A stretch of 64,000 nt of DNA from an uncultured delta proteobacterium (GCA_963832165.1 CAWHTE010000005.1:288001-352000); one strand, 5' to 3'; numbered from the stretch's first letter, positions 1 through 20,215 are shown. Numbers and translations are program-made. Notes: a model not told the origin generated them from the sequence alone.

Positions 1-3000
1 GTCGTTCTGGTTGCCGGTCATGCCGAGCCCGAGCCAGTCGGTCACCCAGAGGCGGCCGCTGCCGCCGAGCGCGAGCGCGTCGAGGTCCTCGAAGCCGGGC
101 GTGTACTCGTACTGCGCGACGAGCCAGGCCTCGTCGCCCGAGACGTTCTCGCTGCGCACGAACAGCTGATCGGACACGGTCGACGAGAGCGGCTCGGTGA
201 GCAGGATCCGGCCCTGGAGATAGTCGATGTCGTAGTCGACCGTCGGCTGCAGGTGCACGACGCCCGTCACGAGGCCGGAGTCCTTGTCGCGCACCTCGAT
301 CCGCAGCCGCTCGGAGCCCATCAGGATGTCCTGGCGCCGCAGGAAGTAGAGCGATCCCTCGGTGCCGCGGAACTCCTCGCGGCTCGGCACGGTGCCAGGC
401 TCGGCGGCGAAGCCGTCGATCGCGAGGCGCTGCTCGCCGTACTTCGTGGTCCCGAGCGTCTGGTAGTGGACGTTGCCGCCGTACAGACCGCGGTCGACCT
501 GCACGAGCTCGTTGTCGAGATAGCCGACCTTGAAGTTGCCCCACATCGCGTGGTTCTCGCGCTGGTCGACCTTCACGAAGAACTTGCCGTTGGTCGGGGC
601 GGCCTCCTTCACGGTGCCGTCATCCCCGAACGCCGGGTAGTGGTAGTCGGGATCGATGCGCCGGAACAGCGATTCCGGGGTCTTCTTCACGAAGTCGCTG
701 AACAGGTCTTCGACCGGCTCCTCGCGCGTGTCGGCGCTCGCGGTGAGCTTCCAGGTGTCCCAGAACTTGCCCGTCGTGAAGAACGCGAGTCGGCCGTCCG
801 CGTTGGAGTTCGGGTCGTAGGGCGCGTCGTTGCCCTCGAGCCCGTTCCGGCTCGGCTTGCCCTTCAGGTTCGCCTGCGCCGTGAAGTCGGCGATGCCCAC
901 GTAGAACCAGTCGTTGCGCTTCATCTCGAGGTCGCGCAGGAACAGCTCGCCGTTGCCCGCCTCGTCGAGCACCGCCACTTCGACCGTGTGCATGCCCTGC
1001 GGCAGCACGACCTCGGCGGCGAAGTTCCCGTGCTCGTCCACGGGCACCTGGGCCCCCGCGAGCCACACCGCGTGCTTGGGCGGAATGCCGCGGCCGTGCA
1101 CCGCGACCGTGCCCACGTTGTCGAGCGGGATGTTGCGCGTCGACGGGCCCGTCTCGCCGTAGTTCGCAAGCAGATTGTCCGCGGGCGGCGCGGCACCATC
1201 AGCGCCGTCGGTGCCGTCCGGGCCCGGCTCGGACCCGTCGGCGTACTTCAGCCACAGCGACTGCGGCTGCGTCTCGTCGAAGTGCCCGTCCTTGTCGTAC
1301 GCGCGCAGCACGTAGTGCAGCTCGCGCACAGGCGACGCGAACCACTCCGCGGTCGGCTGCCACTGCGCGTTGCCCTGCGCGTCGACCTCGGCCACCGCGA
1401 GCGGCTCGGCCTGGACCGACTGGCCCTTCTCGAAGATCCGCACCTCGGACCGCTCGATCCAATGCGCGTAGTTCGTGTAGCCCCGGAAGCGCACGGCCGG
1501 TCCCAGATCACCCTCCCCCGCATCCGCGGGCACGGGCGCCGTGATCGGGTCGGACGTCACGGAGAGGCGCGGCACCGCCTTGAGATCGTCGAAGCGGAAC
1601 TGCATCTCCGCGTCTTCGAGCGCCACGTCCGTACAGCGCTGGATGTCGGCCAGGCTGCGACCCGGGTCGTCGATCGGCTCGCCGTCCACGGTGATCCGCA
1701 TCAGGTTCAGCGCGAGCGGGTCCTTCGCCTCGAGCTCGCGGGTCATCGGCGTGACCTCGACGCCCTCGTAGTCGTCGATCAGCGCGAGATCGTCGTAGAC
1801 GACCTGCACCACCACGTAGGAGGTCTCGCCCTGCACGAAGCCCGCGTTCACCACATCGTCGGACTGTACGTAGCCGCGTCCCTCGTGCTCGGCCTGCGCG
1901 TCGGGCAGCGATAGGTCGGTCTTGATCCGGTCCATCGCGCGGCGCGCGCGTGCAGCCGAGAGGCCGACGTCGTCGCCGTACACGGACGCGGTGCGCCGGT
2001 CGAGCCGCTCGTTCCGCGTGTAGCCGATGAAGCGCAGGCGCGCGTGGGTCTTGTCCGCGACGTCGCCGAGCGCGCGCCGCAACACTTCTCCGTAGCCGGC
2101 CGGCACCTGCGCCTCGCCGTGCGCATCGACCTGCAGCGGCTCGATCGGGCCCCACGGCGGGTCATAGACCACGGTGACGAGGTCGGCGCCCGCCGCATCC
2201 GGGCAGATCTGGGGCTCGGTGGGCAGATCCGCGAGCGGATCGTCGTACCAGAACTCCACCTCCACGCGGCGGTTCAGCGCGCGACCGCGGTCGGTCTGGT
2301 TGGACGCGATCGGTCGGCTCGCGCCGCGGCCGTCGCTCGCGATCGCCGCCGTCGGCAGCGCAAGCGCGTCCTTCACCGCGAGCGCGGCCCGGTGGCCCAG
2401 CGCCTTCGAGAGCGCCAGATGCGTGCCGTAGATGCGCTCGGCACGGCCCTGGAGCGGCGCGTCATCGGTGTACCCGATGAACTTGACCGCGACGTGTTGC
2501 TTGTCGCGCAGGTCGTGCAGCGCCTGCTTGATCTGGGCGACGAACTCCTGCGTGACCTGGACGTTCTCCTCGCCCGCGTGCAGCGGCGGAATCAGATTCT
2601 TCACGCGCGCGCGCCGGGCGTGGCCCTCCTGATAGCGGAGCTTGCACACCGTCTCGGTGCGGCAGACCTTGACGCGCTTGATCTCTTCCTTGACGAGCAC
2701 GTCCTCGACCGAGGACGCCTCCTCCATCTGGTCGTACCAGACCTCGACCTCGACGCGCCGGTTCAGCGCGCGACCTTCCTCGGTCGCATTCGTCGCGATC
2801 GGCTGGGTGTCGCCCGCCCAGTCGAACGAGATCGCCTCGGGCGGCAGACCGAGCGCGGTCTGGAGGAACTCCGCGACCTCGCCTGCGCGCTCGCGCGACA
2901 GACCCTGGTTGTCGCCGAACACACCGGACAGCGCGGGCGACAGCGGCTGGTCGTCGGCGTGGCCCACCAGGTGCAACCGCACGTTGGGAAGGTCGTGCAT

Positions 3001-6000
3001 GCTGTCGAGCACGCTGCGCAGCTTCGCGATGTAGCTCTGCGGAATCTGCGCGACGCCCGACTCGAAGCGGATCGCCGGCACGATGCCCTTGAGCTTCACG
3101 ATCTTCGCGTGCTCGGTCGTGACTTCCTGCTTCTCGAACCGGTCGCCGAGCTGGTTCTCGAGCGTCTCCGGGTCCTGCGACCAGGTCTGGAACGGCGTGT
3201 CGCCCGACATCTGCCGCTCGACCGAGTTGCCCGGCGTCGTTTCGAGCAGCGGCGGACCCGCATCGACCGACGGCAGCTGCGGCGGGCCTGCGTCGACCGA
3301 CGGCAACAGCGACCCGAGCGCGCCGGCCGTGGTTCCGGCCGGGGCCGCGGGCGGACCGCCGCGGCGCCAGAAGATCTCGACTTCGATCGTGAGCGGGCCG
3401 CGGTTCTTGGCGGCCCACGCCTCGGCGATCATCTGCTTCACGACCGCCACGCGCTCGTCGACGAGCGAGGCGTCCTCGACGTCGGCGATGTAGGACAGGC
3501 GCAGGATCGCCTCGCCCTTCGCGAGCTCCTCGATCAGCAGGTCGACGCGCGGCTTCCACTGCTCGCGCATCACGGTCGAGTTCGGCTCGAACACCGGGTC
3601 CGCGAGGTCCATGCCGACCACGCGCCCGATCGCCGCGCCGAAGTGGAACGGCAGCACCTTGCCGCGCGTGGCGCGCTGCACCTGGACCTGGCGCGTCGTC
3701 ATGCGGTAGCCGCTCGGCAGCGAGCGGTCGTCGAGCTTGAGCACGAAGTTGCTGCCGCGGCCCTCGCGCGGAACCACGGCGCACGTGATGTGGAAGCGGC
3801 CGTGCGGATCGGTCGACGCGACGAGGCCGCGCGCCGTTACGAGCCGGACGCCCGGGAGGCCGCGCTCGGACTTGTCCTGCTCGCCGTTGCGGTTGCCGTC
3901 GTCGAAAACCTTGCCGATCACGTCGGTGCAGTCGAAGGTCGGATCCGGCACGACGCGCACGGTGGCGAACGCCTCGCCCGAGTACGGCACGCCGGCCGTT
4001 CCCGAGAGCGCCTGCGCCCGGTTGGTGAACTCGCCCTCGGTGACGCCACCGCCCACTGCGAGCACGAGCTGCAGTGTGCGATGCGAGAGACCGGGCAGGC
4101 CGCCGAAGTTGCTGAACACCAGATCGCGGCCGTTGATCGTGGGCTCGTTCGGCACGCCGTCGATCCGGCCCGACCCTTCGACGTAGTGGAAGCCGGCCGG
4201 GAAGCGGTCGAGCAGGATCAGGTCGGTGAGATCCGGCGCGAGCGCGTTGGTCACCACGATCTCGTACGGCACGAGCTGACCGCGGTTCACGTTCAGGAGC
4301 GGCGTGGTCTTCGTGATCGAGACGAGGCCGTCGATCACGGGATCGATCGGGATGTGGTTGTTGAAGAGCTGCGCCGAGCCCTCGCCTGCGCTGTTGTCGA
4401 GCGTGAAGTGCAGGTAGTAGGTCGTGGCCTCGGCGGGCTGCGGGCGCGGTCGTCTGGAACTGCGCTTCGCAGAACGCGAGCGTCGCGGGAACGGCGTCGC
4501 TCGGGCCGCCCGGGCACGTCGGCACCGAGAACGCGGCCGTCGACTGGTCCGTGGTCGGCGGGATGATCGTCGAAACGCCGGGGCCGAAGGCGCTGCCCGG
4601 GGGCGTCACCGCGAGCAGGAACGCACCACCGGGCGGGCACGACCCATCGGAGAAGTTCACGTCGAACTTGTAGAAGCCGTTGGCCAGCGTCACCTGGCCC
4701 TGCTGCACCGGATCCACGAAGCAGCTCGCCGACAGCGGCGTGCCGCCCAGCGTCGTCATCGTCACGGTGGCACCCGCCACGGGCGTGCGCGGAAGCGCGC
4801 TGTACACCACGCCGTTGGGGTCGATCGGCAGGTTCAGGTTCTGCAGGTTGGCGCCCGAGGTCACCACGATGGCGGTGATCTGCTGCGGACCGTTCGTGAA
4901 CGGCGAGTCCGCGATGCCCAGCGACGCGGTGTTCGCGCCTGCGCCCGGAGCGCGGAAGCGCAGCGCGTACTGGTCGCCGTTCACGTCGTTGGGCGGCACG
5001 GAGCCGAACTGGTAGGCGCCGTTCGCATCCGTGAGCACGGTCGCGAGCACCGAGCCGTTCCGGAGCAGCTCGACGGTCCAGCCCGGCAAGCAGGCGCGCG
5101 CTGTCGATCACGTTGTCGAAGTTGAAGTCGTGCCAGACCGTGCCGCTGAGCACGCCCACGCCCGGGGTCGTGCCCACGACGATCGTCACGCTCGCGGTGA
5201 GCTGCTGCGGGGGCGTGTTCCAGTCCACGACGCCCGTGTTGGTCACGGGCGTTCCGTTCGGGGCGTTGATCACGGCGCGGAAGCGCAGCACCGCGGACGC
5301 ACCCGGCGCGAGCGATCCGTACGTGCCGTCGTAGTCGGCCGTGATCAGGGAGCCCACCACCGAGACGCCGCCCGTGTTGCCGTTGAGCGTGGCCGACCCG
5401 GCCACGAGGGTGAGCGCACCCGGCGGGGGGTTCGCGTCGAGGTCGTCGCTCAGCACCACGTCGACCGCGGGCACCGACGACACGTTCGTCACGCGCACGA
5501 CGTACTCGAGCGTCGAGCCCGTGAGCGCGGCGCCGCCGCCGACCACCGCGACCGTCTTGGTGATCGTGAGCGCCTGCGTATCGCCCACCACCACCACGGT
5601 CGGCTCGGGCCCGGTCGCGGGGTTGCCGTCGCCATCCGTGGGCAGGTTCGGGAGCTGGTCGCTCGCCACGATGGCCTGGTTGCTGATCAGCGTGCCCGAC
5701 GCCACGCCCGCGTTCACCTGGAGCAGGAACTGGATCACGGCGCTCTCGCCCGGCGCGAGATCCGGGATCGCGATGCCCCCCGCGAGCGGCGAGACGCCGC
5801 CATCGGGCTGGCCCACGGGCGAGCCGTTCAACGTGGTGGTATCGGCGAGGTAGGTCGTGTTCGCGGGAACGCTGTCCGTCACCGTGAGGCCGGTCGCCGT
5901 GACCGCACCCGTGTTGTAGACGGTGATCGTGTAGCGGAGCGTGTCGAGCGGATCGACGATTCCCTGCGACCCGCCGTCGATCGCGATCGCCACCGACTTC

Positions 6001-9000
6001 GGCGCGAACAGGAGCGGCACCGCGCCCACCACGTCGCGCGTGGGATCGTCCGCAACGGCGGTGTCCGGATCGTCCGAGGGCTGGTCGAACACCTGGACCG
6101 CGGGCGCATCCACGAAGCCCTGGTTCGAGATCACCGTGCCGTCGACCGCGCCCGCAGCCACCACCACGTCGAACACGATCGTGGCGACGTTGCTGGTGGT
6201 CGTGGACCCGTCGGCGCGCATCGCGCCCGGCGTGGGATTCTCGGGCGCATGGATCAGGATGCCCGCGGCGAGCGGCGAGCTGCCGCCGGGTCCATCCGGC
6301 ACCGCAGTGCCGTTGAGGGTCGTGCTGCCGGCGACGTAGGTCGTGTTCGCGGGCACGGCGTCGCGCAGCGCGGCGTCGGTCGCGTTCGCGGTGCCGATGT
6401 TCTTGACCGTGATCGTGTAGCGCAGCGTCTCGCCCGCGAGCAGCACGTTCGGGTCGCCCGTGAGATCGGTGGAGATCTTCTGGACGCGGAACACCGCGCC
6501 CGAGGCGATCGTCAGCACCGTGGGATCCTCGTCGCCGGACACGAACGGATCGGACGGGCCGTTCGGGACCGGGTCGTCGCTGACCGTGAACGGGCTTCCG
6601 TTGATGCTCAGCGCGGACTGGTTCGTCACGAGCGTGCCGTTCGAGATCGGCGACGCGAGCTGGACCTCGAACTCGAGCACCACGGTCGCGCCAGCCGCCA
6701 CGCTGATGTTCCGCACGTCCACGACGCCCGTGCCCCGCGCGCCGCCCGTGGCGCTCGTATTGCTGATATCCGCACCCGGGGGAACGTTCACGAGTACGAG
6801 CGTGCTGGGCTCGAACAGCGGGTCGGGGGTGTTCAGGCGATCGAGCTCGTCGAAGATCGCGAGGTTCGTGAGCGCGGCGCCGCTCTGATTGACGAACCGC
6901 ACGGTGTAGCGCAGCAGGTCGCCCGGCGAGGCGGCCGTGGCCGGATTCGCACCGCTCGTCACGTCCATCACGGTCTTCTCGAACAGATAGGCCGGGATTC
7001 CGACCGTGACGGTGTGCGCGTCCTCGTGGTCGAGCGCGAGGGGAGTGCCATCCGTGATCGTGCGCGTGAACTCGCGCCGGCTCGGCGCCGCGGCGGCCGC
7101 GCTGAACCACTGCACCGCGCCCGCGATGTTCGTGAGCCCGGCGCCGTTCTGGCCGCCCGCGTCGAGCACCGTCTGATAGGTGACGATCAGCCGCTGATCG
7201 GAGCCGACCACGGCGGCCGCCGACAGCATGGTGAGCGTGAGCTCGCAGGTCGGATCGCCCGCGAACGACGCGCTGAAGTCCGTTCCCTGGACGAGGGCAC
7301 CCGAGACCGGCGTCGTGCCATCGGCCTCGAACACGCGCGCGGTGATCGCCGTGGGCGGCGCATCGCAGGTGCCGCCGCCGGCCGTGTTCGGCAGCAGGTC
7401 GAGGACCTGTAGATTCCACGCGGGGCCCGTGCCCGTATTGTGCGCATCGAGCGTGAACGTCCCGGGCGTGCCCGGAGACATCGAGACGGGGCCGCTCTTC
7501 TCGAGCGTCATCGCGTCGGGCCCGACGATCGTCATGGGCGGCGTGGTGTCGGGGAGACCGGGCTGCTGACTCAGCGGACTGCCGTTGGTCAGGTTGAACG
7601 TGTAGTCGGCCGTGTTCGTGAACTGGAGCCCGGTCACGTTCGTGGGCGTGTCGAGCAGCCGCACCGTGATCGCGATCGTGACCTGCTCGCCAGCCGGGAT
7701 GTCGATCCCGATCGCGGGGTCCTCGATCACGAGATTCGTCGGCGTTCCCGTGTTCACGGGGGTCGTCCAGGCGCCCGAGCCCGAGACCTTGGCCGCAGAG
7801 ACGAATGCGAGGTCGGCCGCCGACGCGTCGAGATCATCGGTGATCCGCACGTCGTACATCGGATGCGGGACCGGCGTCGCAGGAACCGTGATCTGGTAGG
7901 TGAACGTCTCGCCGATGGCGGCGGTCGCCTGCGTGTTGTTCTTGTCGAGTACGGTCGGCGCTGGTGTCCCGATCACGATGCGGGTCGGATCCTCGTCTCC
8001 ATCGACGTCGGGATCGGCCTGGCCGTTGATGTTGGGGTCGTCGCTGTCCGCGATCTTGGCCGGCGGCGGCGGCGAGTTGCGCATCAGGTCGGCCTGGTTC
8101 AACACCACCGTGCCGTTGGGAATGCCCCCGGCCAGATCGATCTCGAACTGGACCTGCACCTGGCTGTTGGCCGGGATGTCGATGTCGCGGATATCGAGGA
8201 GGCCGGCGCCGCTGGTGCCGCCGTTCGGATTCGAGAAGTTCGTGGCGCCCGGCGGCAGGCTGCCGACGATCGTGAGCGATCCGGGCACGAACACCGCGGT
8301 CGGGTTCATCGCACCGAGGTCGTCCTGGAACCCGATGTTGTTCAGCGGGACGTTCGTGCTCTGCAGGCGCAGCGTGTAGCGCAGCCGCTCGCCCGGGAGC
8401 GCCGTCGCGGCCGGGTTCACCCCCGTGGTGACGTTCGCGACCGACTTCTCGAAGAAGTAGCCGAACAGCTCCGCCGTGACGGTATGGGCGTCCTGGTGGT
8501 CGGGAAGCGCTGGAGTGCCGTCCGTGACGATGCGGTCGAATTGGATCCGGTTCGCGTTGCTGTCGTCGTCGTTGAACCACTGCGTGGCGCCCGTGATGTT
8601 CGTGAGTGGGGTGCCATCCGCGGTGTCGGGATCGAGCTGGGTCCGGTACGTGAGGATCAGCCGCTCGTTCGGGCCGATCGCGGCCGCCGCCGTGAGCATC
8701 GTGAGCGTGAGCTCACAGGTGGGTGCGCCCGCAAAGCCGAACGTGTAGTCGACGCCCTGCGTGAGCGGTCCCTTGCCCGGCACGGGCGTCGTGCCGTCGG
8801 CGGCGAACACGCGCGCGGAGAGGATCTCCGGCGTCACGCTGCACATGCCACCGCTCGCAACGTCCGGCAGCCGGTCGACGATCGTGACGTCCCACGCGGG
8901 AACGAGCCCCGTGTTCTGGAGGTCGAGTCCGAACGTGCCCCACTCGCCGAGGTTGAGCGTGCGCCCGAGCGTCGCGGGACCCGTCTTCGTCATCACGAGC

Positions 9001-9881: not shown

Positions 9882-9956
9882 CCAACCCCTCGTTCCACCA
9901 CCGCGAGACGCGCGCAAATGCCAGTGCAGAACGAGGCAGCCCACCGAATCGGGCCT

Positions 9957-10161: not shown

Positions 10162-11547
10162 CTAGCCCGCCGGCAGGAAGTCGATCGGGTAGAGGATCGA
10201 AACCGTTCCCACGTCCTTCGCACCGAAGTCGAAGGCCCGCACGCGCGCGACTACCTGCGCGGCCAGATCCGGCGCCCGCATGTCGGAGCCCTTCAGCTGG
10301 CACAGCGAGACGCTGCCGTTCGGCTCGATCGTCAGGCGCAGGATCATCTGCCCGCGCAGCGTCGGATCGCGCCGCAGCTCGCGGTTGTAGAGGCGATAGA
10401 GCTCCGCCTTGTGGCGGTCGAACACGATCTGGATCTCCTCGTCGGTGCGACCGGCCTTGGCGCCCGTGCCCAGGCCCGTGCCCGAGTCGCCGCGCCCGCC
10501 GCCTCCACCCGCGATCGTGCTCGTCGCGCGCGCGATCTGGACGCCCTGGATCGATCCGGAGCCTCCACCGCTGCCGCCCGAGTTCACGCCGCGCGAGAGC
10601 GACGCGAGGTTGATGCCTCCGCTCGAGCCGGGCGCCTGACTCGTGATCATCGAGCGCTGGACGGCGCCGCTCTCCGCGCCCGCGTTGGTCAGGTTGGCGG
10701 CCGCGCCGAGCCGCGCGAGCTGCTGATTCACCTTGATTCCGGACAGCTGCTCCTTGAACGCGAGCAGACCCTTGGCCGGACCTTCGCTGGGGCCCTCGGT
10801 CTTGCCCTTGCCGGGCCCGGTGTCCTTCTTGGCCGGCTCGGGAACGGTCTCGTCCGCGATCAGCTTCTTCTCGTCCGGGACCTGCTGCACGGGCGGCGGC
10901 GGCGGCGGAAGCGGCCGCGCCTTCGTCATCAGGCGCACCACGTTGTCCGGCAGCGGGGGGAGCGCATCGGGCTCGAGCAGCGGAATCTCGACCAGCGGGA
11001 TCACGAGCATGAGCAGCAAGGTGATCGCCAGGTTCGTTCCCATGTTCTTGCGGAAACGCTGGTCGGCCTCGTCGCCGCGCGACCACGGCATCACGATCGG
11101 GTGATAGGGAAGCTCGCTGGGGTTGCGGTCGACCTCCCACTCTTCGAGCCGCCGGAGCTCCTGCTCCTGCGCCTCGCGCACATCGTCGGCGATCCAATCC
11201 GCGGCGTCCTGCTGGCGCAGAACCTCCTCGAGCACCTCCTGGCGACGCTCCTCGATCTCGTCGATGCGCTTCTCGAAGCCCGCCACATGGCTGCGCACCC
11301 GCATCAGGAGCTGACTGCTGGCGGCCTCGCGCTCGCCCCAGAAGAGGCCGGCGCCGCCGAGCTCGGAGAGCTCCTCGAGCGCGCCGCACGCGGCGCTCAT
11401 GAGCTGGTGCTGCCTGCGCTCGGTGGACAGCGCCTCGAGCTCACCATCGATCGCGCGCAGGTTGCCCGCGAGACCGTCGAGCTTCTCCTGCGCCTCGGCA
11501 AGCTGTGCGAGGAGCGCCTGTTGATCTTGGCCGGTTACGGAGTCCAT
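10162..11547 (-). CDS. TonB-like energy transducer with AgmX/PglI C-terminal domain (GltG-like)
   Basis: 461 aa: N-terminal coiled coil, one TM segment, Pro-rich linker (PLPPPPPPV), Gly-rich spacer and a C-terminal RTDEEIQIVFDRHKAELYRLYNRELRRDPTLRGQMILRLTIEPNGSV TonB-C-like domain. Confidence 0.85.
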   Translation of the reverse strand: MDSVTGQDQQALLAQLAEAQEKLDGLAGNLRAIDGELEALSTERRQHQLMSAACGALEELSELGGAGLFWGEREAASSQLLMRVRSHVAGFEKRIDEIEERRQEVLEEVLRQQDAADWIADDVREAQEQELRRLEEWEVDRNPSELPYHPIVMPWSRGDEADQRFRKNMGTNLAITLLLMLVIPLVEIPLLEPDALPPLPDNVVRLMTKARPLPPPPPPVQQVPDEKKLIADETVPEPAKKDTGPGKGKTEGPSEGPAKGLLAFKEQLSGIKVNQQLARLGAAANLTNAGAESGAVQRSMITSQAPGSSGGINLASLSRGVNSGGSGGGSGSIQGVQIARATSTIAGGGGGRGDSGTGLGTGAKAGRTDEEIQIVFDRHKAELYRLYNRELRRDPTLRGQMILRLTIEPNGSVSLCQLKGSDMRAPDLAAQVVARVRAFDFGAKDVGTVSILYPIDFLPAG

Positions 11548-11604: not shown

Positions 11605-12132
11605 CTAGGCCGACTCGAGGCTCGCAACGGAGACCGGCTCGTCCTTCCGAATGACCGCGAGCGAGATCTTCCCGTAGGCGGCGGCAGTGCACGTCGCCAT
11701 CACCTTCTTCACCACGTCGTACGGCAGGGATTTGTCTCCCATCACCGTGATCTCGCGCGACGCGATGTCCTCTTCGGTCACGGGCGCACCGCCCGCGACC
11801 ATCGGCCGCTCGAGCACAGCCCGGAGCGGCGCGATCAGCTGCGTCTCGGCGTGGAGCACGTCCTCGACGTTCGCGACGAGCTCGCCCTGCACGAAGATCT
11901 GGTCCTTCGTGATCATCACGACCACGGACTGCTTCGGCAGCTCTTCCGCGACCGAGTGGGGAACCTCGACGCCCTTGCTGTTCTGGATCACCTCGACGTC
12001 GGCCGAGTACACGAGCAGGAACGCCACCATCACCGACATGATGTCGATCATCGGGATCAGGTTCAGCTCCGTCTCCGTGTGGTGGCTGCGGTCCTTCGCC
12101 ACGTTGCGGCGCGCGATGTTCAGAATGCTCAT
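11605..12132 (-). CDS. ExbD/TolR family protein (AglS-like)
   Basis: ELNLIPMIDIMSVMVAFLL TM with conserved Asp; GDKSLPYDVVKKVMATC. Confidence 0.9.
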   Translation of the reverse strand: MSILNIARRNVAKDRSHHTETELNLIPMIDIMSVMVAFLLVYSADVEVIQNSKGVEVPHSVAEELPKQSVVVMITKDQIFVQGELVANVEDVLHAETQLIAPLRAVLERPMVAGGAPVTEEDIASREITVMGDKSLPYDVVKKVMATCTAAAYGKISLAVIRKDEPVSVASLESA

Positions 12133-12175: not shown

Positions 12176-12757
12176 TCACGGCGCGTCGCCGACCGAGATG
12201 TCGGTGAACAGGGCCACGCGAATGGTCTTGGGCAGCACCGCCCTCGGACCGCCCGCCTTGGCCGGCTCCGCCTTCACCGGCAGGGCCGCGGCGTCCGGAG
12301 CAGCGGCCGCCGGGGTGAGCTTGGCCACGAGCTCGCTGTTCGAGGGCAGCTCGACGCTGCGGATCACGTCCATCACCTGGATCATGTTGTCGTAGTCGAT
12401 GTCGGGCTGGAGCAGAACCGAGGCGTCGTCCGAATCCGGGTAGTCGCTCTTCAGCGACACCACGAGCTCCCCGAGCGTCTTCATGTCGTACGCTCCGTCC
12501 ACCTTCGGGATCGTCGCGATCAGCGCCGTGCCGTTGGTGAGCTCGAAGCCCTCCTTGCGGACGATCACTTCGAGCCGGAACGGCGGCGTCGCGGCCACGG
12601 CGGTGTTCGAGCTCGGAAGGTCGAGCTCGATGATCGTGATGCGCGAAAACACCGCTGTCATCAGCAGGAACGTGACCAACACCGTGAAGATGTCGATCAT
12701 CGGCACGAGCATCAGCTCTGTCGCTTTGCGTTGCGGATGTCTGTGTTTCCGTCGCAT
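12176..12757 (-). CDS. ExbD/TolR family protein (AglQ-like)
   Basis: ELMLVPMIDIFTVLVTFLLMTAVF; PDIDYDNMIQVMDVIR. Confidence 0.9.
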   Translation of the reverse strand: MRRKHRHPQRKATELMLVPMIDIFTVLVTFLLMTAVFSRITIIELDLPSSNTAVAATPPFRLEVIVRKEGFELTNGTALIATIPKVDGAYDMKTLGELVVSLKSDYPDSDDASVLLQPDIDYDNMIQVMDVIRSVELPSNSELVAKLTPAAAAPDAAALPVKAEPAKAGGPRAVLPKTIRVALFTDISVGDAP

Positions 12758-12769: not shown

Positions 12770-13456
12770 TTAACCCTGCGCCGCCTGCGGCTGCACGAGA
12801 CCGAGGCGACCCGCCTTGGCGGCGTGGCGCTCGGTGACCGCGTTCAGGAACTTCGTGCAGGCCATCTCGAGACCGGTGACCAGCTCGATCGTCTTGGTCT
12901 GCAGGAACGCGTGGATGAACACGAACGGCACCGCGGTCATCAGACCGAACGCCGTACAGTTCATCGCCTCCGAGATGCTGGCCGAGAGCAGGTTCGCCTT
13001 CTCGGCCGGGTTCACGGTCGCCACCGCGCCGAACGCGTGGATCAGACCGCTCACGGTGCCGAGCAGGCCCAGCAGCGTCGCGAGGTTCGCGAACGTGGCC
13101 AGGTAGTGCGTGCGCTTCTCGAGCTGCGGGACGATCTCCATCATCGCCTCTTCCATCGCCACCTCGACGTCCTCGCGCCGGCGCACTGCGCCCTGGCGAG
13201 CCAGTCCCATGGCGAGGATCTGCGAGATCGCCGTCTCGTCGTTGCGCGTCATCTCGCGCGCCTGCTCGAACTCGCCGGCCGCGAGCACGGGCTGGAGCCG
13301 GGCCCATGTGCCCTTGTTCACCGAGCCCAGGCGGACCAGCGTGACGTAGCGCTCGAGCGCGATCGCGCCGCCGGCGGCCAGCACCAACGCGATCGGGAGC
13401 ATGAACACGCCGCCCCCCGCGAAGAATCCAACAATCGAATACATGAAGTCCATCAC
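12770..13456 (-). CDS. MotA/TolQ/ExbB proton channel protein (AglR-like)
   Basis: ANLATLLGLLGTVSGLIHAF...ISEAMNCTAFGL signature; 3 TM segments. Confidence 0.93.
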   Translation of the reverse strand: MMDFMYSIVGFFAGGGVFMLPIALVLAAGGAIALERYVTLVRLGSVNKGTWARLQPVLAAGEFEQAREMTRNDETAISQILAMGLARQGAVRRREDVEVAMEEAMMEIVPQLEKRTHYLATFANLATLLGLLGTVSGLIHAFGAVATVNPAEKANLLSASISEAMNCTAFGLMTAVPFVFIHAFLQTKTIELVTGLEMACTKFLNAVTERHAAKAGRLGLVQPQAAQG

Positions 13457-13495: not shown

Positions 13496-13813
13496 CTAAC
13501 GCGCGCCGGAACCGCTGGTTCCGGACGACTCCGATCTGATCTGGTAGTAGTCGAGCTCGCGCAGGAACACGTCCCTGTCGACGGGCTGGCGGCCATCATC
13601 GAGCGCGCGCGACACGTCGAGCGCGCTGCCGAGCGCCGAGCTCTTCCACGGCACGATCACGAGCGCCTTGGGCGCGTCGTCGTTGCCGACGATCGCCATG
13701 CCCGCGAGCTCCTTGTCGCCCTTGGGCGCCGCCGGCGTCTCCTTGGGCTCCTCCGCCGCGAGCGCGGCGGCGGCCGCGAGCATCACCGTGCATGACACGA
13801 TCGAGCGCAGCAT
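13496..13813 (-). CDS. Small exported protein (GltF-like position)
   Basis: ATG 13813 after GAGGAG; signal peptide MLRSIVSCTVMLAAAAALA; GMAIVGNDDAPKALVIVPWK motif typical of this gene cluster. Confidence 0.7.
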   Translation of the reverse strand: MLRSIVSCTVMLAAAAALAAEEPKETPAAPKGDKELAGMAIVGNDDAPKALVIVPWKSSALGSALDVSRALDDGRQPVDRDVFLRELDYYQIRSESSGTSGSGAR

Positions 13814-13821: not shown

Positions 13822-14436
13822 TCACTTTCCGGCCCGCGCGCGCAGGTCGGCGACCCACATCGCGGCCTCCGCGTCACCCGGCACGGCCTGCAGGTAGAGC
13901 TCGTACTGCTCGAGCGCGCATTCCGCGTCGCGCAGATAGAGGTCGCACAGGATCCCGAGATTGCGCCGCGCGTAGTGGAAGCTCGGATAGAGCGCGAGCG
14001 CCTGCTCGTAGCTCTTGCGCGCCTGCGCGAAGCGGCCGGTCTTGCGCAGCACGATCCCCATCTCGTTGTGCGCGACCGGGTGGCGCGGATTCTGCTCGAG
14101 CGCCTTCACGAGGCTGGCCTCGGCGCGCGCGAGATCGCCCTTCTCGCGGTAGGCGATCGCGAGGTTGATGTGGGCCGACGTCGCATCCGGCGCGGCCTTC
14201 GTCACCTCTTCGAGCTGCGCGATCGCGCCGTCGTACTGCTTCTGCTCGAGCGCGCGGACCGCACCGTCGAACCCGGACCGCGCCGATCCGCTCGCGCGCA
14301 CGGTCTCGGTGATCGTGAAGCCCGAGAGGTCCTGGACCTCGACGGGCGCGGGACGCGCCGGAGCCGAGCCCGCGCACGCGGTGGCCAGGCAGGCGGCGGC
14401 GAACAGAGCGAGCGCGCGATTTTGGTGCTGCGACAT
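13822..14436 (-). CDS. TPR lipoprotein (GltE/AglT-like)
   Basis: C-terminal 204 aa of ORF 13822..17226 from ATG 14436; lipobox-like LATAC; TPRs (AHINLAIAYREKGD, AHNEMGIVLRKTGRF, ARRNLGILCDLYL). Confidence 0.82.
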   Translation of the reverse strand: MSQHQNRALALFAAACLATACAGSAPARPAPVEVQDLSGFTITETVRASGSARSGFDGAVRALEQKQYDGAIAQLEEVTKAAPDATSAHINLAIAYREKGDLARAEASLVKALEQNPRHPVAHNEMGIVLRKTGRFAQARKSYEQALALYPSFHYARRNLGILCDLYLRDAECALEQYELYLQAVPGDAEAAMWVADLRARAGK

Positions 14437-14438: not shown

Positions 14439-17400
14439 TCAGTTCTCCGCCATCGGCTCGTCGGCCGCCGCGGGATCCGGTGCGGCCGGCGGCGCGGGCG
14501 CCTCGGCCTCGGGAACCGCGATTTCCTCGGGGACGGCCGCCTCCGCGGGCGCGCTCGGCTCCACGCTCTCCGCGAGCTCCGGCTGCACGGGCTGCGCCGG
14601 CTCGGGCTGCGCGGGCGCCGGCCGGGCCGGTGCGCGATACGCGTAGCTGTCGATCGCCGCGACCGGGCCGCTGCTCGTCTCGGACTTCGCATAACGGCCG
14701 GGCGAGAGCGCCGCGAGCCGCGCGAGGCTCTTGTCGATCCAGGGGTTGTACACGCCCGAGCCCAGCAGCTCGAGGTTCTTCTCGTGAACCGCGATCGCCT
14801 TGTCCTCGAACGGGAACGCCTCGCCTTCGAGCGTCGCGTCGTACTCCGCGAGCTCTGCGGCCGAGAGGCCGCCCGGGCGCTCCGACTCGAGCAGCGCGCG
14901 GCTGAAGTCCGCGTAGACCTCGGCCATGTAGAACGTGGCGGCCGAGGTCACCTCGGCGACCTCGTAGTCCACGAGCGCGCCGAGCGCGTCGAGCGTCGTG
15001 TTCATGCGCTGCTGCTTCTGCTTGAGGCTGCGCTCGAACGGCAGCGTCAGAGCCACCTCGCCGAACGATCGGTAGAGCTCCTGGGCCAGCACGAGCGCCG
15101 ACTGTGCGGCGAGGAAGCGCACGCGCGCGGTGCGCTGCCCGCCCGCGTTGGCGTCGATGTCCACGATCTGGTGCAGCTGGCCGTGGTAGGCGACCTGGTC
15201 GCGCGCCGCCGAGTACATGCCCGCGATCTTCCAGCGCGTCTCCACGGCCGGCTCGATCGGCTCGGGGAACTCGCTCACGTACTTGAGGTAGGCCGCGAGC
15301 GCGCGCTCGGTCGACTTCGCCTTCTCGTACAGATCGCCCGCCTCGAGCTGGGCCTCGCGGCGCAGCTCGGGGTCTTCGGACTCCACCGCAACGCGCTCGT
15401 ACTCGGCGGCCGCACCGGCGAGATTGCCCTCTTCCCGCTTCACGAACGCGATCTGCTTGGTGGCCTCGCGGTTGAGCTCGTGCTCCGGGTAGGCCTTGCG
15501 GAAGCCATCGAGCACGGCGCCGGCCTTGGCCCAATCCTCGACCCTCATCAGCGCAGCGCCCGCGTCGTACTCGGCCGAGGGCCGGATGCTCGAGGTCGGA
15601 GCCGCCTTCGCAACGCGCAGGAAGTGGTCGGAGGCCGCGCGGTAGTCCTGGGCGGCATTGGCCTGCTCGCCCTGCTTGTAGATCGAGGCGGCCAGATTGT
15701 CGATCACCCCCTGGCGCGCCTTGTCCTCGCCCGCGGTCATCTCGAGCACGTGCGTGTAGGCCTGCTCGGCCTGCGGATAGGCCGAGGTCTCGAACGAGGA
15801 GTGCGCGACCACGGTCCACGCCGCGCGCCGGATCGCCGGATCGGAGCCCGGATAGCTCTCGATCAGCCGAGTGCCCGTCGCGATCGCGCGCTCGAACTCC
15901 TTCATCTCGTACAGGTTGTCGACGGCCGCGCCGAGCACCGCCGCGGCGTGCTCGTGCTTCGGGAACTTGTCCACGAAGCGGAGCGTGCTCGCGACCGCGT
16001 TGCGCTTGACCGCCACCTTGTCGTCGCCCGATGCGGCCTTCTCGTGCTCGCGATGCGCGTAGATCGCTGCATAACCGGCCGACGCGCTCTTCTCGTGATC
16101 GGGATACTCGTAGGCGGTGCGTTCGTACTCGCGCGCCGACTGGCCGAAGTCCTTGTTCTCGAGCAGGAGGTCCGCGAGCCGGTAGTGGAGCGCCGGCGTC
16201 TCCTGCTCCTTCGGGAAGGACGTGAGATAGCCGCGGTACCAGCGCTGAGCTTCGGCGAAGTTCGCGGGCTTCTCCTTCTCGAGGCCCTCCGCCTGATAGA
16301 GCGCGTGATAGTGATGCGCGAGGTCCTGGAGGTTCTTCTTGAGGAAGCCCCGGACTTCGGGCGACTTGTCGATGTCGAAGTGGCGCCAGTATTCGGACTC
16401 GAGCGCGTACGTGGCCGCGAACTGCTTCTTCGACTCGAGCACGAGCTTGGGGAAATCGCCCTTCCCGTAGATCTCGATCACGCGCATGCTGAAGTGCGGC
16501 GACACCTTGTGCAGCGGATTCAGCTCGATGAACGCCTGGTAGCTCGCCGCGGCGTCCTGGAAGCGCAGCTTCTCGAGGTAGTACTCGCCGAGGCCGCGGT
16601 AGATGCGGTCCTCGTAGCCCCGGTGTCCCTTCGCGCCGAAGTACGAGACCACGGACGACGGCCCGCCCAGGCCCGAGAACGAGAGGCTGATCACGTGATA
16701 GGTGTCGGCGATCCGGCGCTCGGTGTCCTCGTCGTTCTTCTGATCGAAGTCGTATCCCGTGGAGACCTTGTAATCGAGCAGCGCCATGTACTGGTCGAGC
16801 GCTTCCTCGAGCATGTCCTGCTTGTAGAGGGTCCAGCCGAGCTTGTACAACGCGAGCTCGTAGTACTCGGACCGCGAACCCATCGCCGTGATCGCGCCGT
16901 ACGACTTCTCCGCGTCGAGGAACTTCTTGCGCACGAAGTAGTACTCCGCACGCCGGAACTGCACTTCGTCGAGATGCCGCGACGCCGGATACTGCGCGAC
17001 CAGCTGGTCGATCACCGTGACCGCTTCGTCGACGCGGCCGAGCTCGTCGAACGCGCGCGCCTTCTGGTAGAGCACCTGGTCGTTGTGCGGGTAGTTCGGA
17101 TAGGCGGTGAGGATCTGGTCGTAGAGCGCGATCGCCTCGAGCGGACCGTCGGGCGCCTGCTCCTTCCCACCCGGCAGGTCGAGCGAGCGCGGAGCGCCCG
17201 ACGGCAGCTCCGTGGCGCGGTCGCACGCCGCTCGAACTCCTGATCGGATTCAGCGCGCTTCGGCTTCTCGCTCGCCTTGCGCGGCGCCGGCTTCGCTTCG
17301 GCGGGCACGGCGCTCGGCTCCGGAGCCGGCATCTCGCGGATCTTCGAGTCCTCGAGCAGCCCGTATTCCTTCTCGAGCTTGAGGTCCGCGAGGCGCCGCA

Positions 17401-17608
17401 TCGCCTCGGGCGTGAGCGCGGACTCGGGCGCCTCGTCGAGGAACTTGCGGTAACCCGACATCGCCTTGTCGAGGCTGTCCTCGACCTTCACCTCGGCGGT
17501 ATCGGGCTCGACCGAGTGCAGCTTCGCGAGCGTCTGCCCCGAGTTCCCGGCGCACGCGGCCGCCACCGCGGACGCGAACAGGAGTGTCGTGCGGGCCCAG
17601 TGATTCAT
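14439..17608 (-). CDS. Large TPR lipoprotein (GltD/AgmU-like), one apparent frameshift near 17200-17225
   Basis: Starts MNHWARTTLLFASAVAAAC (lipobox) at 17608 in the 17012..19513 frame, then continues in the 14439..17075 frame with many TPRs; span of 3170 nt is not a multiple of 3. Confidence 0.8.
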
Positions 17609-17616: not shown

Positions 17617-19542
17617 CTACTGCGCCGCGGCCTGCGCCTTGGCGGCGCGGTCGTAGCTGTCGGCGAACGCGAAGCGGGCCTCGTTCTGGTATTCCGCGAG
17701 TCGCTCGCGGCGCACGCGGAGCTCGCGGCTCGCGACGACCTCGACCACCTTGCCCTGCGCGGTCATCAGCGTGTCGAGGTTCTCGAGCGAGGCGGTGATC
17801 CGCGAGCGCAGGTTGCGAATCGGAGCGTCGTATCCGACGTAGCTGTGGGTCGCCGCCTGGCGCGTGCGCACGAACGAGTCGTACTGGGTCTGGAGCCGCT
17901 CGATGTCTGCGTTGAGCTCGCGCAGATGCGTGTGGGTGTCGGTCAGGCGCCGGTGGTAGTCGGTCTGCTGCGTGAACCGCAGCACGCCCCGGAGCCGGGC
18001 GAGCCGCTGCATCGCCATCTCCTGGGCGGGCCCGTTCGCACCCGCGAGACCGGCCTCGAGCTTCTCGATCCGCGCGGTCGCGGCCTGCTCGTGCGAGGTC
18101 GCCAGGTAGTCGGGGCGCGGCGCGATCAGCATGTGCTGCAGGCGGCGAGCCAGAGACTTGCGCTGCTCGAGCCGCAGCCGCATCTGGGCATCGAGCCTGC
18201 GGAAATTCCGGTCGAGCTCGGGCAGCAGCGGCTCGTAATACTCGCGGCGCAGCCGGATCAGATCGTCGAACGAGTCGAGACCCTTCTCCCACGCGACCAT
18301 CTTCTTGCGCATGTCCTCGAGGTCGAGGTAGTTCTGGAGCGCGGTCTGGAAGTCGTGCGACGCCATCAGCGTCATCAGGTAGAAGGTCTCGGGCGCGTCG
18401 GGCAGGCTGCGCAGCCGGATCACCCAGTCCTTGTCCTGGCGGATCTCCTCGCGCACGAGGTCCTTCAGGAACTCGCCCTTCTCGATGCTCGCGATCGAGG
18501 CGTCCACCTTCGTGAGCTCTTGGGCGAAGGTCTCGACGGCGCGCCCGTACAGCACCGCAGCGCGCCCGTGCACGTTCATCTTGCTGTAGGCGTAGGGCAG
18601 CGCGAGCAGCGCATCCTGAACCGCGGCGTCGGTGGGCTCGCGCTCGGCCAGAATGCTCCAGGGGACCACCGCGCGCTTGAAGTTCTGCGCCGAGACGTCG
18701 GCCCAGCCCGCGCGCAGGAGCGCCTGGTTGGAGTACGGCCCCTCGAGGCTCACGCGGTCCAGCGCCTTCTGCGCGGCGCCGAACTCGTTCGCCTCGAAGA
18801 ACATCGTGCCGAGCACGAAGTTGGCCTTGTCGCGGATCGCGACGGTCGCGGGGTCGTTGGCCGAGATCTGGCCCGCGGCGTCGAGCTGCTGCACGGCCTC
18901 CTTCGCGTTCCCTTCCTGGAGGCGCGCGATGCCGAGGTTGTAGGTCGAGAAGCCCTCGAGCGATTCGGAGCCCTGCAACCCCTCGAGCACGCGCGCGGCG
19001 TCCGCGGGTCGGCCCATCGCGGTGTAGACATTGGCGCGCAGGAACTCGACCTCGTCGCGAATCGAGTCGGGCACCTTCCCATGGATCCGATCGAGCGCGT
19101 GCAGCGCGTCGACCGGCTGGTCCTTCTGGAAGTGGATGCGCGCGAGCCGGAAGGCCGCGACGTTGCGCACCTCGTCTTCCACGTCGGCCTCGAGCACGGC
19201 CTTGATCGCGCGACCCGCGCGGTGATGCATGCGGTAATTGAGCTCGAACGCGCCGACCGAGAACTCTGCGGTCTTGATGTGGTACTGGAGCGTGTCGAGC
19301 GCCGGCTCGTCTACGCCGAAGTGCCCCGCGACCTCGGCATCGAGGCGCCCGAGTGCCTCGAAGTACTGATTCTGGAACGCGTAGTACAGCGCCTCGCCAA
19401 AATAGAGATCGCGCAGCTCGATGCGGCTGTCCTCGGGAATCACCGGGGCGGTGTCCCAATCCTGGTATGAGCTCGCTTCCGAGCTCCCAGTCGCGAGCGC
19501 CACGAGGGCGCACGCGGTGATCGTGGCCAGTGCTGCGCGCAA
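17617..19542 (-). CDS. Exported TPR/coiled-coil protein (GltC-like)
   Basis: 641 aa, TTG start, signal peptide, TPRs, coiled-coil C-terminus ending ARFAFADSYDRA. Confidence 0.8.
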   Translation of the reverse strand: MRAALATITACALVALATGSSEASSYQDWDTAPVIPEDSRIELRDLYFGEALYYAFQNQYFEALGRLDAEVAGHFGVDEPALDTLQYHIKTAEFSVGAFELNYRMHHRAGRAIKAVLEADVEDEVRNVAAFRLARIHFQKDQPVDALHALDRIHGKVPDSIRDEVEFLRANVYTAMGRPADAARVLEGLQGSESLEGFSTYNLGIARLQEGNAKEAVQQLDAAGQISANDPATVAIRDKANFVLGTMFFEANEFGAAQKALDRVSLEGPYSNQALLRAGWADVSAQNFKRAVVPWSILAEREPTDAAVQDALLALPYAYSKMNVHGRAAVLYGRAVETFAQELTKVDASIASIEKGEFLKDLVREEIRQDKDWVIRLRSLPDAPETFYLMTLMASHDFQTALQNYLDLEDMRKKMVAWEKGLDSFDDLIRLRREYYEPLLPELDRNFRRLDAQMRLRLEQRKSLARRLQHMLIAPRPDYLATSHEQAATARIEKLEAGLAGANGPAQEMAMQRLARLRGVLRFTQQTDYHRRLTDTHTHLRELNADIERLQTQYDSFVRTRQAATHSYVGYDAPIRNLRSRITASLENLDTLMTAQGKVVEVVASRELRVRRERLAEYQNEARFAFADSYDRAAKAQAAAQ

Positions 19543-19548
19543 GGTGGG

Positions 19549-20130
19549 CTACCAGGCTCCGAGCTGGATGCTGGCGTCCCCGGCGTCGGCCAGCGTGATC
19601 CCGACCAGCTTCGGCTCCACCTTCTTGCTGAACGTGAAGCTCTGATTGCGCGTGTAGTCCCCGCCGCTCGGCGTCTTGCCGAGCACGGCGACGTCCAGGC
19701 GGTGGTCGCCCGTCGCGACGTTGCCCGTGTAGATCCGCTGCACGCCCCCCATCTGCAGCGCCTCGAGCTCCTTGAAGGTGTAGATGTGATGCGCCACGAG
19801 CTGGCCATCGATCTGCACCTGCACCGAGTCGAGCCGGAACGTCTCCCCATCCTTCATCGACACGAACAGCGCCACCTGCGTGTTCGAGGGGTAGAGCAAT
19901 CGCTCTTCGAGCTGATTCAGCTCAGCGGCGATCCCCAACACGTCCGACTTGATCTCCTGGACCTGTTCGTCCAGGCTCTGCATCTGCTGCTTCGATGCCT
20001 CTTCGGCACCAGCGGCAGCGCCCCAGACTCCGCACAGCAGGGCGAGCGCAGCGGCAAAGCAGATCCAGCGCTGCGCGTGCGCACGGGCCCTGCGGCGAAC
20101 AGAATGCCTCTCGACGGTTGCGTCCATCAC
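19549..20130 (-). CDS. Conserved exported protein, first gene of the TPR-ExbBD operon
   Basis: Signal/TM segment, coiled coil, LEERLLYPSNTQVALFVS...GGVQRIYTGNV motif; no recognisable HTH. Confidence 0.75.
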   Translation of the reverse strand: MMDATVERHSVRRRARAHAQRWICFAAALALLCGVWGAAAGAEEASKQQMQSLDEQVQEIKSDVLGIAAELNQLEERLLYPSNTQVALFVSMKDGETFRLDSVQVQIDGQLVAHHIYTFKELEALQMGGVQRIYTGNVATGDHRLDVAVLGKTPSGGDYTRNQSFTFSKKVEPKLVGITLADAGDASIQLGAW

Positions 20131-20193: not shown

Positions 20194-20215
20194 CGTGACG
20201 GCGGACACAATATTG
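20194..20215. promoter_or_regulatory. CRP/FNR-family-like binding box, copy 2
   Basis: CGTGACGGCGGACACAATATTG, 64-85 bp upstream of the operon ATG; matches 10115..10136. Confidence 0.55.

Follow-up and report, generated by a model that had tools for sequence, protein, structure and literature searches.

A conserved envelope module combining an Agl/Glt-like motor operon with a riboswitch-preceded giant fibre protein in an uncultured delta proteobacterium and its relatives

The locus

The DNA analysed here, called the window throughout, is a stretch of 64,000 nucleotides (nt) from an uncultured delta proteobacterium (GCA_963832165.1, CAWHTE010000005.1:288001-352000; the genome is 5.5 Mb in size and 89% complete). 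The system in question lies on its minus strand, at positions 1-20130, where an operon for a proton motor of the Agl/Glt type is followed by a riboswitch of the cyclic di-GMP (c-di-GMP) class and by the gene of a giant surface protein. A first-pass annotation had described this block as an exported protein, three TPR proteins, a small exported protein, ExbB, two ExbD proteins and a TonB-like protein, with a riboswitch; all of these genes, and the riboswitch, were found. The protein families were assigned by Pfam and NCBIfam scans and the riboswitch by Rfam. The features of the module are as follows.

19549-20130, minus: exported protein of 193 amino acids (aa), the first gene of the operon; N-terminal hydrophobic signal, no Pfam match
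17617-19542, minus: exported TPR protein of 641 aa in the GltC-like position; TPR_21, TPR_19, TPR_14
14439-17608, minus: large TPR protein of ~1,055 aa in the GltD-like position; TIGR02795 (YbgF/CpoB), TPR_6, TPR_16
13822-14436, minus: small TPR protein of 204 aa in the GltE-like position; matched by many TPR families
13496-13813, minus: small exported protein of 105 aa; signal-like N-terminus, no Pfam or NCBIfam match
12770-13456, minus: ExbB/TolQ/AglR-type proton channel of 228 aa; PF01618 (MotA_ExbB), E 1e-26
12176-12757, minus: ExbD/TolR-type protein 1, 193 aa; PF02472, E 3e-15, transmembrane Asp kept ('MIDIF')
11605-12132, minus: ExbD/TolR-type protein 2, 175 aa; PF02472, E 9.5e-19, transmembrane Asp kept ('MIDIM')
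10162-11547, minus: GltG-like bitopic force transducer of 461 aa; AgmX/PglI C-terminal domain, NF033768
9964-10050, minus: c-di-GMP-I riboswitch aptamer; RF01051, 71.8 bits (gathering score 35), model positions 1-87 (full length)
3350-9881, minus: fibre part of the giant (gene 1 of relatives); signal peptide, pilin/adhesin-like N-terminal region, DUF11 repeats
3244-3349, minus: in-frame linker with an LPSVDAGPP repeat, the fusion point; replaces the stop codon and second signal peptide of relatives
1-3243, minus: base part of the giant (gene 2 of relatives); conserved N-terminal stretch, OmpA_C domains, middle region
~2758-3069 and 2257-2442, minus: two clear OmpA_C peptidoglycan-binding domains in the base; PF00691, E 4e-21, two stretches in NCBIfam OmpA models
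C5:286231-288070, minus: predicted C-terminal beta-barrel of the base, almost wholly outside the window; AlphaFold2 (AF2) model

The first nine genes stand in a tight row, with a spacing that ranges from a 4-base overlap to 57 bases. The large TPR protein scores above the cut-off of the YbgF/CpoB model (104.3 bits against 90.1), and both it and the 204-aa TPR protein carry lipoprotein-like signals, as judged by eye. The 641-aa TPR protein is 57-68% identical to the versions of relatives. The ExbB-type protein is 46-53% identical to its counterparts in classical gammaproteobacterial core clusters and 27-32% identical to the paralogues in its own genome (41% over one 58-residue piece).

The last gene of the row codes for the GltG-like protein, which consists of an N-terminal stretch of about 150 aa (a cytoplasmic coiled coil by eye only), one transmembrane helix, a Pro-rich stretch, a Gly/Ser linker and an AgmX/PglI (TonB_C-like) domain that scores 60.6 bits against NF033768 (cut-off 40). 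The TonB C-terminal model TIGR01352 stays under its cut-off (23.4 bits against 27.1), and the equivalogue cut-offs of the Myxococcus xanthus proteins are missed by a wide distance (GltG, NF033760, 34.7 against 650; GltE, NF033758, 43 against 225). No second protein with an AgmX/PglI domain above the NF033768 cut-off, as GltJ would be, was found in the genome, at its 89% completeness. At the level of gene content and gene order the operon matches the core complex in the accessible text of Luciano et al. 2011 (PMC3169522), so that the Agl/Glt-like character proposed by the first-pass annotation is borne out.

Linkage of the motor operon and the giant gene in relatives

An alignment search with one genome per species gave 574 relatives of the GltG-like protein, and the best 80 of the 574 loci were analysed. 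They belong to Steroidobacteraceae, Woeseiaceae, Candidatus Azotimanducaceae and other Gammaproteobacteria, and to metagenome-assembled genomes (MAGs) labelled Myxococcota or Deltaproteobacteria; five of the 80 duplicate contigs already in the examined set. All eight genes upstream of the GltG-like gene, including a homologue of the 193-aa exported protein, are present and in order in each of the 53 loci with at least 9 kb of upstream sequence, and the 105-aa exported protein is likewise kept in relatives. The giant directly follows the GltG-like gene in 61 of the 63 loci with at least 2.5 kb downstream, the exceptions being L053 and L083, the latter a locus of Gallionellales. Order and orientation are kept at protein identities of only 40-60%, in a lineage labelled Myxococcota and in several families of Gammaproteobacteria. 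A survey of gene neighbourhoods was the check proposed in the first-pass annotation, with inconsistent linkage as the outcome that would speak against a coupling, and what we found is a giant that is consistently linked to the motor operon. Since it follows the operon in nearly all relatives examined, the motor likely serves the fibre, which would give this motor family a testable job.

The same picture emerges closer to the window and from the opposite direction. Among genomes of the same family, the riboswitch is present in 7/7 contigs that reach past the GltG-like gene, and the giant in five of the six contigs with at least 0.6 kb past the riboswitch (the exception, L007, has 2.5 kb and no match). 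When the base protein was used as the query against 301 genomes sampled from the window's phylum, the 12 strongest matches over the full length (that of the window's own genome among them) were all in the window's order and class, and a complete motor operon plus riboswitch lies just upstream in 6/6 fetched loci with upstream room.

An even sample of 400 gammaproteobacterial genomes contains a GltG-like match in 75 genomes and a base match in 48. The full-length form of GltG, with the N-terminal stretch of ~150 residues, occurs in only five of these genomes, and in 5/5 the base gene is found 6-20 kb downstream on the same strand. The other 70 of the 75 GltG-positive genomes have, nearly without exception, a short GltG of ~310-350 residues that belongs to the common core cluster, and where such genomes have a base gene it is on another contig or far away. 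Three core clusters were fetched (L102-L104); they consist of the big and the small TPR protein, the small exported protein (in 2/3), ExbB, two ExbD and GltG, with 32-53% identity to the proteins of the window. The coupling is specific to the subfamily with the N-terminally extended GltG-like protein.

At least two cultured and non-pathogenic organisms carry the module, Povalibacter uvarum DSM 26723 and Lentisalinibacter orientalis. The sequencing runs among the matches listed hold at most 0.15 of the words and are soil, rhizosphere and freshwater metagenomes, with no RNA run among them. Note that short-read contigs of L008-L011, L014, L016, L032, L041, L043, L075, L086 and others stop within or just past the GltG-like gene or the riboswitch. 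Such contig ends fit a repetitive fibre gene that breaks assemblies, and the module is probably under-counted in MAGs.

Structure of the giant protein

The giant starts with an ATG at 9881 on the minus strand and runs 590 aa past base 1 of the window to a stop at C5:286228, which gives a total of ~3,880 aa. The DUF11 and OmpA domains that the first-pass annotation had assigned to it are present; its picture of one long gene needs amendment, as the frame is broken twice, the protein extends beyond the window and most relatives have two genes instead of one.

The reading frame is broken near 5090 and near 4433, so that the gene falls into the segments 9881-~5097, 5086-4436 (inside an SdrD_B/CarboxypepD_reg domain) and 4431-1. 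The large TPR gene also has one break, near 17211 (between 17213 and 17210), and the same gene is intact in relatives. As a housekeeping control we looked at rpoB and rpoC, which are whole, and at two dnaE-type genes (C5:22529-25628 and C11:78-5748), in which internal stops split the sequence over many frames. Parts of the assembly seem to be rich in indel errors. Because rpoB and rpoC are whole while the dnaE-type gene on the window's own contig lies in at least five frames, the three breaks of the module are probably assembly errors rather than signs of decay.

In relatives the giant is encoded by two genes in 50 of 52 readable junctions, one of the remaining two being fused (L017) and one odd. 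The fibre gene has 1,350 to >3,300 codons, its own signal peptide and a conserved C-terminal domain that ends in ...(V/I)FWRxG.P, while the base gene has ~1,700 codons, its own signal peptide, a conserved N-terminal stretch, two clear OmpA_C domains and a C-terminal barrel; the stop of the fibre gene and the start of the base gene overlap or abut in these split forms. Comparison of the junction with seven split relatives shows that in the window fibre and base are fused in frame. Fused forms also occur in L017, in the database protein P0088, which has the same type of linker, and in P0090, and in six genomes from the order of the window there are open frames of 5,097-5,192 residues with the barrel at their end. 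Because P0088, P0090 and the six genomes of the order are fused as well, the fusion is no artefact of this assembly.

The fibre part starts with the signal peptide and continues, after the pilin/adhesin-like region and the DUF11 repeats, with an isopeptide-type domain, SdrD_B/CarboxypepD_reg domains and a conserved C-terminal domain ending in ...EIFWRRGGPP. The scores are E 1.2e-35 for DUF11, 163.6 bits for TIGR01451 and 71.8 bits for TIGR04226 (isopeptide-type pilin, cut-off 30). An AF2 model of fibre residues 34-353 (pLDDT 83, pTM 0.76) has its best PDB matches in BcpA, GBS80, Cnm and Sgo0707, i.e. in Gram-positive pilins and Cna-type adhesin domains, with TM-scores of 0.29-0.35 for the query; these predicted fold matches fit a fibrillar adhesin. 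A search of the ESM Atlas with the fibre's C-terminal domain yielded DUF11/SdrD_B clusters only, all without names. The tip of the fibre occurs in at least two alternative N-terminal types, one with an AEITY... start (L022, L026, L035, L067, L070, L073, L074) and one of the window's type (the window, L057, L081), and the alternation suggests that the tips may be swappable binding heads on a common stalk and base.

In the base part, the NRRVE and GHAD peptidoglycan-binding motifs of the OmpA domains are invariant in our alignment (A4). A third OmpA_C domain looks degenerate by eye. The invariant motifs imply that the OmpA domains should be periplasmic, and the fusion then implies the same for the C-terminus of the fibre. 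Just before the first OmpA domain there is a conserved ET(V/I)KL motif, in a stretch which we take to resemble a TonB-box-type strand. A prediction of the complex between the C-terminal domain of the GltG-like protein (residues 350-461 in alignment A1) and residues 1-75 of the base (A4) scored 0.01, which gives no answer either way. For the last 800 residues of the giant, an AF2 model built on a 22-sequence alignment predicts ~30 consecutive beta-strands from about residue 190 on (pLDDT 66.9, pTM 0.48); family matches of this region are weak (OMP_b-brl, MipA, YadA_anchor). The base-protein family is common in metagenomes, with at least 3,275 clusters, whose database names go no further than 'MotB' or 'OmpA family'.

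Long frames with parts of the base were also seen elsewhere. In two gammaproteobacterial genomes, base-type barrels end open frames of 11,777 residues (G198:C2:461125-463986) and 5,036 residues (G193:C1:12128-15103), and no full-length GltG-like gene is nearby among the matches listed. In the window's own phylum the families f21 (23/23 genomes), f38 and f32 have frames of ~4,500-5,100 residues that match only the pre-barrel middle region of the base, at 130-190 bits; they may represent a different giant envelope-protein family of larger-genome Myxococcota.

Regulatory elements

The aptamer lies in the 280-nt gap between the GltG-like gene and the start codon of the giant. No further c-di-GMP-I riboswitch was found in the window, including the region before the motor operon, or anywhere in the 5.5-Mb genome. 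Its ligand is predicted to be c-di-GMP, rather than cGAMP, by family assignment, and its position after the motor genes means that here it would gate the giant and not the motor operon. The c-di-GMP control that the first-pass annotation extended to the whole system thus applies in this genome to the giant only, and the motor operon falls outside it; among the 80 related loci a riboswitch precedes the whole operon in 15.

Between aptamer and giant, and upstream of the riboswitch and of the motor operon, we located the following elements; the upstream regions of operon and giant were compared by eye and by pattern search.

9882-9963, minus: expression platform; a small hairpin, an anti-Shine-Dalgarno (anti-SD) element CCTCGTTC (9936-9929) and the Shine-Dalgarno (SD) element GAACGAGG (9895-9888)
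10130-10115, minus: CRP/FNR-type box TGTGT-N6-TCACG upstream of the riboswitch, TGTGTCGCACGTCACG
20209-20194 and 20238-20223, minus: two CRP/FNR-type boxes upstream of the motor operon, the first being TGTGTCCGCCGTCACG; found by pattern search

The anti-SD and SD elements can form a CCUCG/CGAGG helix of five pairs, of which three are unchanged in 12/12 leaders, one is a standard pair in 11/12 and the outer one in 10/12. As the helix is near-invariant it carries no covariation signal, and the fold of the leader is no better than that of shuffled sequences (z -0.42). The riboswitch likely acts on translation.

Among the relatives, an intergenic riboswitch is present in 57 of the 78 loci with at least 300 bases downstream, one of the matches being weak (28.5 bits). 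Of the 15 loci in which a riboswitch stands before the first operon gene, 11 have both copies (L016, L018, L020, L024, L027, L033, L039, L050, L058, L059, L089), and only the upstream copy was seen in the remaining ones (L022, L026, L032, L070). In Steroidobacteraceae-type loci this second riboswitch is found ~100-500 bases before the first motor gene, and there the whole module would be under c-di-GMP control. At least nine loci without an intergenic riboswitch have the fibre start within ~20-180 nt of the GltG-like stop, and three of them have a riboswitch only before the whole operon. The aptamer of L003/L019 (1953-2051) has its best match in the c-di-GMP-I-GGC variant RF03167 (59.2 bits, gathering score 59) and contains a longer P3 insert.

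The two matching upstream boxes mentioned in the first-pass annotation were located as TGTGTCGCACGTCACG before the riboswitch and TGTGTCCGCCGTCACG before the operon. Both are embedded in a longer stretch common to the two upstream regions and fit the CRP/FNR half-site pattern TGTGN-N6-NCACN. In relatives the pattern occurs in 16 of 79 intergenic regions and in 21 of 54 operon-upstream regions, where ~0.03 per 350 nt would be expected from the loci themselves, and the boxes are putative CRP/FNR-type operators. Eight Woeseiaceae-type loci (L034, L042, L046, L047, L052, L054, L063, L075) have a conserved TGTGA-N6-TCAC box 64-170 bases past the GltG-like stop; L034, L047, L052 and L054 are without riboswitch and L046 has a 20-bit trace only, all of them with a long conserved leader.

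Comparison with known systems

According to the accessible text of Luciano et al. 2011 (PMC3169522), the Agl/Glt core complex is defined by aglRQS and gltCDEG, and its genes are also linked in Gammaproteobacteria, with an extra gene and without a known function there; that text does not mention a downstream giant or a riboswitch. The parts of the core-complex literature available to us leave the function open and suggest secretion (PMC3169522; 10.1101/2020.07.22.216333), and GltG goes unmentioned in the accessible part of a 2025 survey of TolA/TonB-type transducers (PMC12204202). The operon of the window resembles the core complex in having one MotA/TolQ-type gene and two adjacent ExbD/TolR-type genes, a bitopic Pro-rich protein with an AgmX/PglI domain and three exported TPR proteins in the same operon, the last at the level of domain and position only. 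The widespread gammaproteobacterial core clusters share its order at the identities given above (we infer that the clusters fetched correspond to those of Luciano et al.). Two features set the module apart from these classical clusters, i.e. the extra N-terminal stretch of the GltG-like protein and the fibre and OmpA/barrel base genes that follow, usually behind a c-di-GMP riboswitch.

The module can also be compared with the gliding (Agl-Glt) and spore-coat (Agl-Nfs) machineries of M. xanthus. In the accessible part of a preprint (bioRxiv 10.1101/2020.07.22.216333) a proton motor is proposed to be coupled via TonB-like proteins to an outer-membrane platform that handles the adhesin CglB, and the module shares this logic of motor, TonB-like coupling and platform for a surface adhesin. 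Unlike Agl-Glt, the genome of the window has no equivalogue-level GltG or GltE match and a single AgmX-domain protein; the outer-membrane partner is one very large OmpA-domain barrel instead of the small GltA/B/H/K barrels, and the adhesin is a DUF11 fibre instead of a VWA lipoprotein.

A second comparison concerns Tol-Pal, which has a TolQ/R-type motor, a TolA-like transducer, a YbgF/CpoB-type TPR protein and a peptidoglycan-binding outer-membrane partner of the OmpA type, all with counterparts in the module. The differences are that no TolB turned up in the family scans, that there are two ExbD paralogues, and that the partner, at ~1,700 aa, is a barrel protein linked to a giant fibre. Type V secretion also combines an N-terminal passenger with a C-terminal barrel in one chain or in an adjacent gene pair. 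Here, however, there is no match to an Autotransporter, ShlB, POTRA or intimin-type family, the barrel is far larger, OmpA domains stand between passenger and barrel, and the locus also encodes a dedicated proton motor. Type IX secretion and gliding (GldLM, SprA, SprB) combine a proton motor of the inner membrane with a very large outer-membrane barrel made of one chain and with a giant, repetitive adhesin whose C-terminal domain is conserved. The logic of our module is alike, but the protein families are unrelated save for a weak TPR match to PorW/SprE (26.5 bits, cut-off 250), and in the module a covalent fusion of fibre and barrel protein can occur. Finally, GEMM-I riboswitches are found before adhesin and pilus genes, and the canonical aptamer in the 5' leader of a surface-protein gene follows that pattern. 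It differs from other such leaders in that it stands inside a motor-plus-adhesin module, is the sole copy of its genome and is duplicated before the motor operon in some Steroidobacteraceae.

Interpretation

Taken together, we see a conserved envelope module, and we consider it somewhat probable that its proton-motive-force motor acts on the base of the riboswitch-preceded giant fibre to export, extend or tension the fibre. We infer a motor dedicated to a peptidoglycan-anchored giant adhesin, which c-di-GMP would license; such a motor would display or transport the adhesin, as the first-pass annotation had put it. In such a scheme fibre and base would enter the periplasm by Sec, and the base would put its large barrel into the outer membrane and grip the peptidoglycan via the OmpA domains. 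The fibre's conserved C-terminal domain would stay beside these domains (we place it in the periplasm because fibre and base can be one polypeptide), and the DUF11 stalk would pass outward through the barrel. The motor would deliver proton-motive energy to the outer-membrane step via the periplasm-spanning GltG-like protein and the TPR scaffold; this step is modelled on the proposal that GltG/J act on the Glt outer-membrane platform and CglB. Binding of c-di-GMP to the aptamer would control the translation start of the giant via the SD/anti-SD helix, for which an 'on' state at high c-di-GMP is expected in the case of an adhesin, and a CRP/FNR-type regulator could co-regulate both promoters.

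Several observations weigh against this reading. The evidence consists of genes and of their co-inheritance, and physical contact of the motor with fibre or base is a prediction. In this assembly the reading frames of the giant and of one TPR gene are broken. In the classical core clusters unrelated genes follow GltG in 3/3 and there is no giant, and nine distant fibre/base pairs have no motor genes in the fetched stretch (9/9) and no riboswitch, as searched with Rfam on seven and with our own model on all nine. Because core clusters lack the giant and distant fibre/base pairs lack the motor, motor and fibre/base are separable modules, which were joined in one subfamily and have been joined since. 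In the window a weak terminator-like hairpin and the riboswitch stand between motor and giant, and the two may be separate transcripts in this genome. The barrel model is only moderately confident, with strand number and closure being predicted, and a Foldseek search with it found generic large barrels only (TonB-dependent transporters, LptD, MtrB, the FimD usher; TM-scores 0.19-0.28). Furthermore, the transmembrane helix of the GltG-like protein has no His of the 'SHLS' type in alignment A1, a motif that the accessible part of the 2025 survey describes for TolA/TonB-type transducers (PMC12204202).

The main rival, which we regard as rather unlikely, is a Tol-Pal-like role without export, in which the motor would adjust where the OmpA-type base sits or how it binds peptidoglycan and so relocate or lock the adhesin platform. 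The TolQ-, TolR- and TolA-like bitopic proteins of the operon, the YbgF/CpoB-type TPR protein above its cut-off and the Pal-like OmpA domains with invariant peptidoglycan-binding motifs are what such a role would lead one to expect. It also calls for a TolB-like beta-propeller, of which the Pfam and NCBIfam scans of the module's open reading frames (ORFs) gave no sign, and the C-terminal domain of the transducer is of the AgmX/PglI type, not TolA III. This role also leaves the constant pairing of a very large barrel with a fibre of conserved C-terminal domain unexplained.

Less probable still is that motor and fibre/base are co-regulated neighbours, i.e. that both serve a sessile, c-di-GMP-high lifestyle with no contact or mutual dependence. 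Each module does occur without the other in other Gammaproteobacteria, and in the window the giant comes with a leader, a riboswitch and a promoter-like box of its own. Mere co-regulation fits poorly with an order and orientation that persist in several families at the low protein identities cited, with an intergenic gap that shrinks to some tens of bases in several lineages, and with the N-terminally extended GltG that goes with the giant in 5/5 sampled genomes.

We think it quite improbable that the system serves gliding or surface translocation, with a motor that moves the adhesin relative to the cell body as in Myxococcus Agl-Glt. Bacteroidetes gliding (SprB with GldLM) is a precedent for a proton motor that drives a giant adhesin, and the core genes are homologous to Agl/Glt. 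Against it, the single AgmX/PglI-domain protein above cut-off leaves the genome without a GltG plus GltJ pair, two clear and possibly three peptidoglycan-binding domains would pin the base, and the core genes are insufficient for motility according to the accessible text of Luciano et al. (PMC3169522).

An ordinary TonB-type nutrient importer that merely adjoins a large surface protein is very improbable: ExbB, ExbD and a TonB_C-like domain are present and a Plug ORF lies ~2 kb past the end of the giant, but this ORF lies on the opposite strand and lacks homologues in the 111 related loci, the TonB C-terminal model stays under its cut-off, and three TPR proteins with a fixed link to fibre/base genes are atypical of importers. 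The first-pass annotation had seen no TonB-dependent receptor in the window, and this holds as judged by the Plug family only (nine Plug matches in the genome, none in the window).

Returning to a motor that acts on the fibre's base, its more ambitious form is a distinct outer-membrane system, in which motor, TonB-like transducer and TPR scaffold would thread a covalently stabilised giant fibre through a ~30-strand peptidoglycan-anchored barrel and hold it there. It would stand beside the Agl-Glt gliding machine as a sessile sister that deploys an adhesin, with c-di-GMP as its licence, and it would be common in Steroidobacteraceae and Woeseiaceae of soil and sediment and in one Myxococcota order; we put this forward tentatively, as a possibility short of probable.

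Neighbouring genes

Just upstream of the operon there are an ExeA-like AAA_22 ATPase (20471-21445, minus) and an acidic TPR protein of 1,055 aa (21460-24627, minus), neither of which has a homologue in the 80 loci. The genes downstream of the giant are, by family, unrelated to the module. The nearest Plug ORF (~693 aa, 80 bits) is at C5:282083-284164 on the plus strand, beyond the giant's stop and outside the window. Because it has no counterpart in the 111 related loci, it is an incidental neighbour, and no TonB-dependent receptor, as judged by the Plug family, belongs to the module.

Significance

The coupling of motor and giant is undescribed in the full-text literature searched, a search with subscription journals and supplements outside its scope. 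Relative to that literature the module is a variant of the Agl/Glt core complex not previously described, and there is a realistic possibility that it forms an outer-membrane system distinct from those known. In the accessible parts of the sources (PMC3169522; 10.1101/2020.07.22.216333), the function of the core complex outside gliding and sporulating myxobacteria has been undescribed since 2011. One branch of the complex now has a fixed and identifiable outer-membrane partner, a cargo and a second-messenger switch, which makes the core function experimentally addressable. A function for the base protein would re-annotate thousands of genes. If it is true that the motor powers export or tensioning of the giant fibre, the module would add to the cases in which TonB-like energy is directed outward, to secretion or adhesion, and not to import.

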